64,000 nucleotides of DNA from an uncultured Marinicella sp. (GTDB taxonomy: Bacteria; Pseudomonadota; Gammaproteobacteria; Xanthomonadales; Marinicellaceae): assembly GCA_947502925.1 (NCBI GenBank), contig CANNBS010000002.1, positions 25,079 to 89,078 of the forward strand, read 5' to 3'. The position numbers were made by a program, and so were the translations under genes. This document shows, piece by piece, positions 33,288 through 37,751 of the stretch; positions within the stretch are counted from its first letter, which is position 1, and every line of letters begins with the position of its first letter. The notes under the pieces are model-generated. The model made no database searches, was not told the DNA's origin, and saw only the letters and a list, made by a program, of their open reading frames with translations.

Positions 33288-35435
33288 TTAGTAAACGTCG
33301 TTCACCGTGTTGTAAATATTGAATTTACCGGTTGGTGTTACGATGCGTTCATCATCGATCACTTTTTTCAGTTTTCTGGTTTTATCATCGACCACAACAA
33401 TGGCTGATTTCTCATCCATGGTGTTCCACACAGAGAACCAGACCTCGTCACCGGCTTTGTTGTATTCAGGTTGGACCACACGTTTTGGCCCTTCACCTAA
33501 ATTAGCCCACTCAGCAATCGGTAACACCTCATAACCTTTGTCCAGGTTATTGATGTCAAACACTGCAATGCTTTGTGATTTGGCTTCATCCGGATTTAAA
33601 GTCGTATCAACCCACAGGTTTGAAGATTTCGGATGGGTTTTGACGAACAGTGAACCACCGCCTTGGCCTTTTAAAGTTCGCACCACTTTCCAGGCATTAT
33701 CTGGATGACCTTCAGGGTCAGTGCCTAAGAAAGTAATGTTGTCATTACCCAGGGCAGAGGTGACCCAGACCGGGCCGTACTCAGGGTCATTGATATTAGC
33801 ACCACGACCGGGATGTGGAATTTTGGTGACTTCTGTTAGTGCCACCAGTTCACGTTCAACAGAGTCAACCACCGCGATGCGATCTGAATTGTTGGCCGCT
33901 GTCAGGAAGTAGCGTTTTGAACTGTCCCAGCCACCGTCGTGCAGGAATCGGGCCGCACCAATGGTGGTGACTGATAAGTTTTCAACATCTTCATAATTGA
34001 CCAGTAAGATTTTACCGGTTTCTTTGACGTTAACAATAAACTCAGGGTGATTATGAGAAGCCACAATGGCAGCAACACGCGGTTCAGGGTGATATTCTTG
34101 GGTGTCCACAGTCATGCCTCGGGTTGAAACCACTTTTTTAGGCTCTAAGGTATCACCGTCCATAATGACATACTGAGGTGGCCAATAGGCACCGGCAATC
34201 GCCAGTTTATCTTCATAACCTTTGTATTTAGAGGTTTCCACAGAACGTGCTTCTAGACCAATTTTTATGGTGGCAACAATTTTCGGTGGGTTCATATACA
34301 TATCAATCATATCAACCTTGGCATCACGTCCAATGGTATAAGCGTATCGACCTGATGCTGATGGACGGGTAATGTGTACCGCATAACCAGTTTCCAATAT
34401 AGAAACAATTTCTTTAGATTCACCATCAATAAGGGCCATTTGACCGGCATCACGTAAAGTCACCGCAAAGAAGTTATCCACATCGTAATCATGCTGTTTG
34501 GTTTTTGGACGATCTTCCGGTTTTACATGGACAACCCAGGAGTCGGTCATTTCTGGCAAACCCCATTCAGGTGGTGCCGGTGGTTCATGCTGTAAGAAAC
34601 GGGCTAATACATCAATTTCTTCTTTGGTGAAATCACCTGAGGTACCCCAGTTAGGCATACCGGCGGGTGAGCCGTATGTGATTAAGGTTTTCAGATAGTC
34701 TGTACCTTTTTCACGGGTAATATCCGTGGTTAAGGGTTTACCGGTGGCGCCTTTACGTAAAACACCGTGACAACCGGCACAACGTTCGAAATAAGTCTGT
34801 GTGGCAAACTCAAATTCTTCTTCCGTCATTTGAGGGCCTTGTGAATCCACCATTTTTTTAGTGGATTTTGGATCAATACCAGAAGGTGAACCCTGGTATT
34901 TAATTTCTGCTTCACTGGCGCCAGGATGAGTCACCGGTTCACCATCAGCAACTTCTTTTTTCATGTCTTTATTGCGGATACTGGCCACTTCAGCGGCACT
35001 CACCTGATAACCGTCATTACCCCAACTGTGAGTGACGTAGGTGAGGATATTGGCAATTTGCTCGTCATTTAAATAAGACAAGTTCGGCATAACAGCATTA
35101 TATTTTGTACCATTAACCGTAATTTCGCCGGATAAACCATGCAAAATGGTGCCAATGGCACGTTCTTTATCTTCTAATAAATAATCTGATTGTGCAAGGG
35201 GCGGAAAAGCACCGGCCATTCCCTCACCATTGGGTTGGTGACAGGCTACACAGTGAATGCCATATAGTTTTTCACCTTCAGCCATTTGTGTAGATAAATC
35301 GGTTTTGCCTGTGTTCATTTCCGCTTTATGGGCCGCTAAAGGGTCTTTGTCTGCGGATTTGTCGGCTTGGTCCGCGCAAGCAGGTAAGGCGACGACCAGA
35401 CCGGCGATTAACAGACTTTGCTTTAGTTTAATCAT
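33288..35435 (-). CDS. nirS: Cytochrome cd1 nitrite reductase with an extra N-terminal cytochrome c domain
   Basis: CVACH (extra domain) and [17 protein letters not shown] (native c domain); d1 beta-propeller with [26 protein letters not shown]. Confidence 0.95.
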
Positions 35436-35500
35436 GGTTATTAACTCCTGATATTAAAAATCATTGTTCCGAATTTATGTTGATAGTCTTTCAATGATGT

Positions 35501-35541
35501 ATTTTACGTATAGATAAAATGACTTCATTGATGTAAGTCAA
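35501..35541 (-). promoter_or_regulatory. FNR/DNR class II promoter of nirS
   Basis: TTGAT-GTAA-GTCAA at 35528-35541; TAAAAT on the minus strand at 35506-35501. Confidence 0.78.
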
Positions 35542-35567
35542 GCTGACTACATTAGTTTAACATCTAA

Positions 35568-37751
35568 TCACCACTGGTACGAGTAAGACATTGAAAAATA
35601 ACGTGAAGATTGCGTTAATGCGTTGATAATGGGGTCTTCTGCATCGAAATTACGGACTTGTTGCCATTGCCAGTAGGTCTTGTCGGTGAGGTTATTTATA
35701 CTGAACTGTAATCTTGATTGTGGCGTAAAGTGGTAACTGGCCATCCAGTCAAAAACCGCATAACCGGGCGTTTGAAACAAATCTTCCTGGGTTAAATCAA
35801 CTTCATCCTGTGCCGCACTAAAACGACCATACAACCCCATGTGCCATTTTTTTGACGCGCTGGTCCATTGGGCAGACAACACCGCTTTGGGCGGTGACAC
35901 AGAATTGAGGGGCTGATCGTTGGTTTCATTCACACCTTTTGTCCAGGACAGGGCAGCGTGGGTTTGCCAGTGCTCATTAATAAACCATTGGTGATCAATT
36001 TCAAAGCCGTGAATACGGGCTTTGGCGATGTTTTGTGATTGAAATAACAACGCCTGGGTTTCGGGGTCAATCCCCAAAGGTGCACGGGAAACAATCAGGT
36101 CCTTGTATTCGTTATAAAAGCCGCTAAGGGTGAGTCTCTGATTGGGTAAAATTAATCGGTAACCGGCTTCATAACCATTGGATGTTTCGCTCTTTAAATC
36201 AGGGTTTGGAATCGAGCGATAATTAAACAGAGCGATGTTAAAACCAATATTGACATCTTCAGCCGGTGGTGCCCGAAAGCCCCGCACATATTGGGCATAG
36301 ACACTGCTGTAATCATCAATCTGATATAACAAGCCTAATTTAGGTGAAAAATCAGATTCATCAATATCAACCACTTCAATGTCTTCGGCGTTATTATCAA
36401 ACAGGGCATCCCGGGAGGGATCCAAATCATAGCGATCAAAACGCAGCGCAGGAATCAGTGTCCATTGATCACTTAAATCAATTTCATCATGAACAAACAC
36501 ACCAATTTCTTTAACATTGGTGAGCGGAAAATCCCGGAATGGAAATACCTCGCCCAATAAAATATTCGTACTGTCACCGGTGTTTAGATTGGTTTGCAGC
36601 GCATCTCGGTATTCGGCGACATCTGTTTGGGTGATTTCAACACCATAAATAAGCCGGTGTGACCAGCCACCGGTGTTAAATTGCTTGGTGAAATTGGCTT
36701 CCATCCCCAGCGCTTTTTGTTCAAAGCTAAACACACGATCTTGTCGCAGCGGTGTGCCTCGGCGTGAAAAACGATTTTCAGCGGTTTTTTGTAAAAACTC
36801 GGTGTTGCTGTGATAAAGCCGGATTAATCCATCATCTGCCCAGCCCTTATTGAGCATAAAATCATAGGTGGCGCTTATTTTTTGGGATTCACTGCTGTCA
36901 TCACCGGCCAGTGCGGTGGTGTTGGCAAAACGACCCTGGCCGATAAAAGAATGGATTTGGGTGGTTTGATCGCGTTGTTGGGCCTGTACATTAAATGACA
37001 GCTGATGCCCCGGCGCCACATCAGTGACCCATTTACCAAAAACGGATTGCTGATCCCAATCGGCATGATCATCTGCCAGGGTTGTGGGTCTTTGCAGACC
37101 TTTGCCATCACGTTGGTTAATATTAAATATCACACCATTGTTCTGGCCATTCCAGGCATGGGTGTAGGTACCATGCCGGCCATTATACTGACCATTAAAG
37201 CCCACTCTAATCTGACGCCAATGATCACCCGCACTCATCATATCCTGTGGATTCCTGGTGTGAATACTAACAATCCCGCCCAATGCATTACTACCATATA
37301 GAGTGGAGGCAGGACCTTTTAAAACTTCAATACTTTGAATAACAGAGACATCCGGATATTGCGTCGTGGCGAACGAATACGAGCCAATATCAAAAGCTTT
37401 AGCATTAGGTACACCATCGACTTCAACCGCCACCCGGTTACTGCCAATGCCGCGAATATTAATGCCTGAAGTACTAAAGCGGTTACCGGCTTGTTCAATA
37501 TTAATATTGGTTTCGTAACGCAAGGCCGCCGCCATATCTTCACTTTGGGTGTTTTGGATCTGTTCGGCACTGATGATGGCCACATCAGCAGCCACTTCCT
37601 GTAAAGCCCGTGCCTGTTTATACGCGACCACAATCATCGGACTTAAATCGGTGGTGTCATTTATATCCTGGTTAGCGGTGCTGTCGTCTTGCGCATTTGT
37701 GGTTGATGTCATTAAGCCCAGAATGACAACTAAACTGAATTTTTTCATCAC
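35568..37751 (-). CDS. TonB-dependent receptor, heme/hemoglobin-receptor family
   Basis: Signal peptide, plug (NIRG, IEVLKGPASTLYGSNALGG), FRAP..NPDL motifs, C-terminal YQW. Confidence 0.88.
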   Translation of the reverse strand: MMKKFSLVVILGLMTSTTNAQDDSTANQDINDTTDLSPMIVVAYKQARALQEVAADVAIISAEQIQNTQSEDMAAALRYETNINIEQAGNRFSTSGINIRGIGSNRVAVEVDGVPNAKAFDIGSYSFATTQYPDVSVIQSIEVLKGPASTLYGSNALGGIVSIHTRNPQDMMSAGDHWRQIRVGFNGQYNGRHGTYTHAWNGQNNGVIFNINQRDGKGLQRPTTLADDHADWDQQSVFGKWVTDVAPGHQLSFNVQAQQRDQTTQIHSFIGQGRFANTTALAGDDSSESQKISATYDFMLNKGWADDGLIRLYHSNTEFLQKTAENRFSRRGTPLRQDRVFSFEQKALGMEANFTKQFNTGGWSHRLIYGVEITQTDVAEYRDALQTNLNTGDSTNILLGEVFPFRDFPLTNVKEIGVFVHDEIDLSDQWTLIPALRFDRYDLDPSRDALFDNNAEDIEVVDIDESDFSPKLGLLYQIDDYSSVYAQYVRGFRAPPAEDVNIGFNIALFNYRSIPNPDLKSETSNGYEAGYRLILPNQRLTLSGFYNEYKDLIVSRAPLGIDPETQALLFQSQNIAKARIHGFEIDHQWFINEHWQTHAALSWTKGVNETNDQPLNSVSPPKAVLSAQWTSASKKWHMGLYGRFSAAQDEVDLTQEDLFQTPGYAVFDWMASYHFTPQSRLQFSINNLTDKTYWQWQQVRNFDAEDPIINALTQSSRYFSMSYSYQW

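Follow-up and report, generated by a model that had tools for sequence, protein, structure and literature searches.

A TonB-dependent receptor gene of the heme family conserved beside nirS, and its possible role in supplying heme d1 to cytochrome cd1 nitrite reductase

The stretch of DNA analyzed here, 64,000 nucleotides of a contig from an uncultured Marinicella species (CANNBS010000002.1) and referred to below as the window, carries three consecutive minus-strand genes that form the subject of this study. A gene for a TonB-dependent receptor of the heme/hemoglobin receptor family (35568–37748, in an open reading frame, or ORF, extending to 37751) is followed by nirS, which encodes a 715-residue cytochrome cd1 nitrite reductase (33288–35435), and then by a gene for a Dnr/NnrR-type regulator of the Crp-Fnr family (32471–33178). 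An earlier note on this DNA had remarked that nirS appeared without the genes for heme d1 biosynthesis and directly downstream of a heme-type receptor, and had proposed that the receptor might scavenge the missing cofactor. Comparison with related loci shows that the receptor gene and nirS stay together in more than a hundred related bacteria of marine and sediment origin, from many families and mostly lacking adjacent d1 genes, and this pairing is the central observation of the work.

The receptor probably begins at the ATG at 37748 rather than at 37751. From this start it has a signal peptide, a TonB-box-like segment (PMIVVAYK), a plug domain (PF07715), a beta-barrel (PF00593) carrying FRAPP and NPDL motifs, and a C-terminal Trp. 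It scores 369.7 with TIGR01785 (cutoff 316.85) and 362.1 with TIGR01786 (cutoff 323.75), and its best solved relative is PhuR of Pseudomonas aeruginosa, to which it aligns over its full length (227 bits; PDB 8the). These features place the predicted product in the heme/hemoglobin TonB receptor family, as the earlier note had held. Its closest named relatives are from Marinicella, at 53–56% identity, which marks the organism as a Marinicella-like gammaproteobacterium. Across an alignment of 120 receptors of the same clade, the G-F-R-A-P-P and N-P-x-L columns show little or no variation.

The residues that bind heme iron in PhuR are replaced. PhuR His124, in the plug, corresponds to Thr in the window receptor and to Gly or Thr across the 120 nirS-linked receptors, and PhuR Tyr519 corresponds to an Asn that is invariant across the same set. 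The motif FRAPPAEDVNIGFNIALFNYRSIPNPDL of the window receptor contains no His, no conserved His was found in the FRAP-NPNL loop among the 120 aligned receptors, and the heme-iron ligand pattern of a plug His with a His or Tyr in this loop is missing from the receptor. The absence of His from both positions had been noted from the sequence alone and was borne out. The idea that a Tyr in the loop acts as a replacement ligand had to be given up, since the residue varies across the clade, being Tyr in only 45 of 120 receptors and otherwise Ile, Val or Leu.

The product of nirS matches PF02239 with 487 bits and contains two cytochrome c domains with two CxxCH motifs. Residues 177–715 can be aligned over their full extent with P. 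aeruginosa NirS (881 bits), and the cd1 part is 66–73% identical to the canonical NirS proteins of P. aeruginosa and the P. mandelii JR-1 plasmid. In an alignment to the structures 1bl9 and 1nir, the equivalents of Tyr10, of His182, the proximal d1 ligand, and of the catalytic His327 and His369 are all retained, so that the c-heme CxxCH domain, eight-bladed d1 propeller, proximal His and two distal His of a cytochrome cd1 are all present. Judged by its sequence, the window NirS is a true cd1 nitrite reductase and, because the d1 ligand and the catalytic His residues are retained, one that requires heme d1. It differs from canonical NirS in having an extra N-terminal c552-like cytochrome c domain (residues 42–157), which resembles the tethered c domain of the three-domain copper nitrite reductase of Ralstonia pickettii and also Thermus c552, and a signal peptide of the lipoprotein type (LPAC, with Ala at +2), by which the enzyme is probably lipid-anchored. 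Exactly two CxxCH motifs occur in all 120 of the closest NirS homologs, and a lipobox-like Cys is common but not universal among them (at least 85 of 120). The c-c-d1 form of NirS is itself very widespread, at about 70% identity across many gammaproteobacterial families.

Canonical nirS genes, as in P. aeruginosa and on the P. mandelii JR-1 plasmid, are clustered with nirMCFDLGHJEN. The annotated cluster on the latter plasmid supplied ten tblastn queries (NirM, C, F, D, L, G, H, J, E and N), and in the 64-kb window and the related loci L001–L006 and L008 their only match was nirS itself. The nirE, nirDLGH, nirJ, nirF and nirN genes of a clustered d1 pathway are accordingly missing from the window locus, as the earlier note had stated, and the neighbor of nirS is instead a TonB receptor gene. 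Nor was a d1 gene found in the flanks, up to 10 kb, of 107 loci with a two-cytochrome NirS. For comparison, nirJ lies within 17 kb of nirS in 18 of 19 cases of proteobacterial plasmid-borne nirS. The exception is pTfr153 of Thiothrix fructosivorans (L008), on which no nirJ was found anywhere on the plasmid. Its island comprises norCB, nnrS, nirS (a 592-residue ORF that the PLSDB gene table omits), two Crp/Fnr genes, ubiT-V-U and norQD; a TonB receptor encoded beside ubiUVT on this plasmid was considered as a counterpart of the window receptor and set aside, as it is unrelated and CirA-like.

To follow the receptor through other genomes, 160 loci were taken from one metagenome scan and one species-genome scan (the best 80 of at most about 600 rows in each) and analyzed by local tblastn. 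In 92 loci the sequence extends at least 2.6 kb to either side of the receptor gene, and 77 of these have nirS within 1.5 kb. Eleven of the remaining 15 belong to a Stenotrophomonas-type branch with 33–34% identity; L117, L130, L136 and L141 make up the rest. A neighbor-joining tree groups the nirS-linked receptors in a single clade above the Stenotrophomonas-type branch. Receptor identity falls as low as about 33%, and the relative placement of the two genes varies: across 120 loci, nirS is downstream on the same strand in 70, divergent in 24, upstream on the same strand in 13 and convergent in 13. A reverse look-up seeded with NirS found the receptor gene directly upstream in four of four cases, with a gene for an outer-membrane barrel of family PF13372 directly 3′ of nirS in three of them. 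Hosts of the pair include Marinicella litoralis, M. marina, Kangiellaceae, Woeseiaceae, Wenzhouxiangellaceae and Arenicella, together with Steroidobacteraceae, Thermomonas sp. LB-4, three Pseudidiomarina species, Dokdonella and Colwellia. Such pairing is too persistent for chance, and its conservation across many families and gene orders supports a functional tie between the receptor and nirS. Loss of the link in relatives had been named beforehand as an outcome that would speak against the proposal, and the link proved to be retained.

The sister branch of the receptor, away from nirS, includes the Stenotrophomonas-type loci L129, L135, L139, L140 and others. At L135, the sole member checked, a DUF6607 gene follows the receptor gene. 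We considered whether this match might be part of the Stenotrophomonas 'hhu' heme cluster, which includes a D1-like protein; it is a different gene, the Stenotrophomonas receptor match being the one paired with DUF6607.

In the window, the receptor gene is directly preceded by a minus-strand block of genes for oxygen-independent ubiquinone synthesis (37797–41718), consisting of ubiU (40723–41718), ubiV (39824–40732), ubiD (38288–39817) and ubiT (37797–38324). The receptor had been described as apparently the last gene of this unit under FNR/DNR control. Within the window the layout is compatible with this description. A predicted FNR/DNR-type box, TTGATTTAGGTCAA, lies before ubiU (41775–41788), only 45 nucleotides separate ubiT from the receptor gene, and no terminator was predicted between ubiT, the receptor gene and nirS, so that ubiT and the receptor gene may be co-transcribed. 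But the arrangement is limited to close relatives: the gene order of the window is repeated in L001 and L002 (85% identity) and in L107, and a meaningful operon link with ubi was therefore rejected. The ubi genes are not beside the receptor in L003–L006 or in most of L009–L168, and at 46–56% receptor identity, with no ubi genes present, the order is norCB(QD)-receptor-nirS-dnr or else nor and the receptor gene diverge. In other loci the receptor gene stands by itself and has its own FNR/DNR boxes. The conserved unit is the receptor with nirS, not ubi with the receptor.

Genes for heme utilization do not accompany the pair. In the eight loci having Pfam gene tables, no heme ATP-binding cassette (ABC) transporter, HemS or heme oxygenase was encoded beside it, and the lone Peripla_BP_2 gene in these loci, in L006, is about 8 kb off and next to a cobalamin adenosyltransferase gene. 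Separately, a gene for a PF13372 (alginate-export-like) barrel lies near nirS in 36 of 120 loci, often in the order receptor-nirS-barrel. Examples are L003–L006, L183 (12161–13384) and L184, and there is none in the window. This barrel could serve as an anion channel for nitrite.

The regulatory signals at the locus point to oxygen or nitric oxide (NO) rather than iron. A predicted FNR/DNR-type box, TTGACTTACATCAA in minus-strand reading (35528–35541), lies about 100 nucleotides before the nirS ATG, and an equivalent box is found upstream of nirS in L001, L003, L004 and L006. Before the receptor itself the window has a degenerate FNR/DNR-like site, TTGACAAATGTCAT (core TTGA-N6-TCAT; 37804–37817, minus strand), which falls within the 3′-terminal part of ubiT, some 60 nucleotides before the receptor start. 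L001 carries TTGACTTAAATCAT at this place, and distant relatives without ubi genes have perfect boxes there. In 33 of 113 loci (29%) a perfect TTGA-N6-TCAA core occurs no more than 250 nucleotides before the receptor, against 2.5% of random windows, an enrichment of about 12-fold; with one mismatch allowed, the figures are 71 of 113 (63%) and a background of 14%. The view that the receptor is regulated by anoxia is thus supported for the clade, with the qualification that the window's own site is degenerate. The best match to a Fur box before the window receptor is 11/19, which equals background, and Fur-box scores across the promoters of the clade receptors follow the background distribution. 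The earlier statement that no Fur box is evident therefore stands.

The Crp-Fnr regulator encoded beyond nirS retains an E--SR recognition helix and lacks the N-terminal Cys cluster of FNR, for which reason we regard it as Dnr/NnrR-like; a homolog adjoins nirS in 26 of 120 related loci. The locus thus combines a box of the TTGAT-N4-ATCAA type with a nearby Dnr-type regulator, the sequence hallmarks of an FNR/DNR regulon, and the predicted signals support assignment of the receptor to an anoxia/NO regulon and not to an iron regulon. Directly 3′ of nirS is a strong intrinsic-terminator-like hairpin on the minus strand (33241–33263), in which 7 of the 9 base pairs are G-C and behind which stands a run of T.

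The relationship between the receptor and heme d1 synthesis can be followed in Colwellia. Only Colwellia-type loci whose NirS has two domains (L026, L027, L031, L089 and L090) have genes for d1 synthesis beside the receptor, and in these the receptor is placed between nirS and a divergent nirC-F-DL-G-H-J-E-N operon. Other Colwellia (within L169–L182) have nirT-nirS and the d1 operon but no receptor. In Colwellia sp. DT_18 (L091), the receptor, hemerythrin, nirS and nirT genes are intact and the nirCFDLGHJEN operon of about 7.7 kb is gone, a methyltransferase gene alone standing in its place between the same flanking genes. Because the L091 receptor nests among those of d1-bearing relatives in the receptor tree, loss of the operon in L091 is the likelier direction of change. 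The receptor, nirS and nirT genes have a ratio of nonsynonymous to synonymous substitution (dN/dS) of 0.07–0.11 in every pair, those with L091 included. When NirF of the nearest Colwellia with d1 genes served as the query, the matches listed were all proteins of Colwellia or Thalassotalea; none could be assigned to the DT_18 genome, and two look-ups among them led to Colwellia clusters that lack the receptor. The series fits a path from making d1, through making and importing it, to importing only.

How could an outer-membrane receptor serve nirS? The d1 cofactor is bound non-covalently and enters NirS in the periplasm. Given an importer of the heme family, no adjacent genes for inner-membrane heme transport, and loading of d1 in the periplasm, delivery of d1 or of a late precursor is the most economical mechanism. 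Under low oxygen or NO, a Dnr/FNR-type activator would switch on both the receptor and nirS. The receptor, powered by TonB, would then move a tetrapyrrole resembling heme across the outer membrane. This would most likely be heme d1 or one of its late precursors, set free by lysed cells or by nirS denitrifiers living nearby, and periplasmic apo-NirS could load it directly with no need for an inner-membrane transporter. We favor, tentatively and with somewhat more doubt than belief, the explanation that periplasmic NirS obtains a tetrapyrrole through the receptor, heme d1 being the most likely one. The ligand, the direction of benefit and the state of the organism's own d1 synthesis are all points that we infer from the arrangement of the locus.

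There are precedents for such a division of labor. PqqU imports pyrroloquinoline quinone (PQQ) for a dehydrogenase on the periplasmic face and needs no inner-membrane transporter, and NosA/OprC is a TonB-dependent receptor that supplies copper to periplasmic NosZ. The proposed mechanism would work like these, with an outer-membrane receptor feeding a cofactor to an enzyme that faces the periplasm, in the second case an enzyme of denitrification. The likeness to PqqU (YncD) is by analogy only: the window receptor scores 53 bits with NF041535 against a cutoff of 1200, which indicates no homology beyond the superfamily, and the class of ligand differs. Similarly, it scores 92 with TIGR01778 (cutoff 472), and NosA/OprC handles a metal ion rather than the proposed tetrapyrrole. 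A full-text literature search found no paper tying a TonB receptor to nirS or to heme d1, and nothing relevant on d1 genes in Marinicella, Thiothrix or Woeseiales.

Several observations weigh against delivery of heme d1. The absence of d1 genes applies to the window and the locus flanks, and a d1 pathway may be encoded elsewhere in the genomes, as may a heme ABC transporter. Thermomonas and Steroidobacter are denitrifiers in pure culture, and if this holds for the strains found here, they would be expected to synthesize their own d1. In some Colwellia the receptor coexists with a complete d1 operon; a receptor inside a complete nirS-nirCFDLGHJEN cluster is therefore, by itself, no sign of d1 auxotrophy, and import, if it occurs, is not forced by auxotrophy. 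The PhuR-type ligands are also missing from the Stenotrophomonas-type branch that is not linked to nirS, so their loss does not on its own point to d1. Finally, in a metatranscriptome of a denitrifying biofilm (run X15), nirS-like contigs reached depths of 100–160 and the ubi genes 2–30, with the receptor region at about 0–1, although most contigs on 31000–42000 were less than 90% identical and came from other species, and cross-species mapping weakens these depths. One paper describes Marinicella, regarded as a strict aerobe, as expressing nirS and norBCQD in a denitrifying biofilm. The stronger form of the proposal, in which many Gammaproteobacteria abundant in the sea and in sediments (among them Marinicella, Woeseiaceae, Wenzhouxiangellaceae, Pseudidiomarina and some Colwellia) carry nirS with no d1 pathway and pirate heme d1 from other denitrifiers through the receptor, is in our estimate unlikely. 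Were it true, heme d1 would be a shared public good, and counts of nirS would overestimate the number of autonomous denitrifiers.

The receptor might instead be an ordinary protoheme receptor, co-regulated with denitrification and providing iron or heme for its heme-rich enzymes, with a heme ABC transporter encoded elsewhere. Scores above both family cutoffs, the close relationship to PhuR, retention of the FRAP and NPNL motifs and coexistence with d1 genes in Colwellia agree with this, and one inner-membrane transporter can serve several receptors. It fits less well with the specificity of the adjacency, which involves nirS rather than nor, ccm or cbb3 genes and holds even in loci that lack the latter. 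PhuR itself also differs from the window receptor, since the latter has replaced both iron ligands, lacks a Fur box and nearby phuSTUVW-like genes, and is accompanied by nirS and FNR/DNR boxes; the eight contexts with gene tables are similarly devoid of heme utilization genes. On balance we think an ordinary heme receptor rather unlikely. A different service to NirS, through another solute or as an outer-membrane dock operating with an AlgE-like barrel while the d1 pathway is encoded elsewhere, is in our estimate unlikely. The lipoprotein signal common among the closest NirS homologs and the PF13372 barrel gene that accompanies the pair in 36 of the 120 loci together suggest a module centered on the outer membrane. 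Yet TonB receptors are known as importers, many partner NirS proteins have no lipobox, and the plug, the TonB-box-like segment and the heme-family motifs of the receptor have all been kept under purifying selection. Islands of denitrification genes are indeed mobile, the Thiothrix and Pseudomonas plasmids being examples, and the pair could in principle reflect inherited synteny or hitch-hiking with no shared function. This we regard as highly improbable, given that the pair survives four orientations, receptor identities of about 33%, saturated synonymous change and varied flanking contexts, and that the receptor has FNR/DNR boxes of its own.

If the receptor does deliver heme d1, the consequences would extend beyond this locus. 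The nirS gene is a standard marker for denitrification. Heme d1 would join B12 and PQQ among traded cofactors. Communities in sediments, biofilms and treatment reactors would rely on cofactor passing from one species to another to reduce nitrite, and some nirS carriers would have no activity on their own. Even if the ligand is ordinary heme, an anoxia-controlled receptor locked to nirS would be an undescribed nir accessory.

Other features of the window were noted in passing. Downstream of the Crp-Fnr regulator gene are sir2, on the opposite strand, and then a ccmABCDEFGHI operon. A further predicted FNR/DNR-type box, TTGATATGTGTCAA (31248–31261), lies about 70 nucleotides before ccmA, overlapping the divergent sir2/cobB start, and suggests that cytochrome c maturation may also be under anoxia control. 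Between recN and ubiU there are two ORFs (41799–42905 and 42942–44132) that have no convincing Pfam match and are kept in the 85%-identity relative L001. In an arginine cluster (18072–19432 and 14627–15403), argininosuccinate lyase is represented by two overlapping ORFs of 262 and 191 residues, and the M20 peptidase ORF looks short (258 residues); these may reflect frameshifts or assembly errors. The window also contains two very large ORFs, of 1215 (51273–54920) and 1638 (56114–61030) residues.

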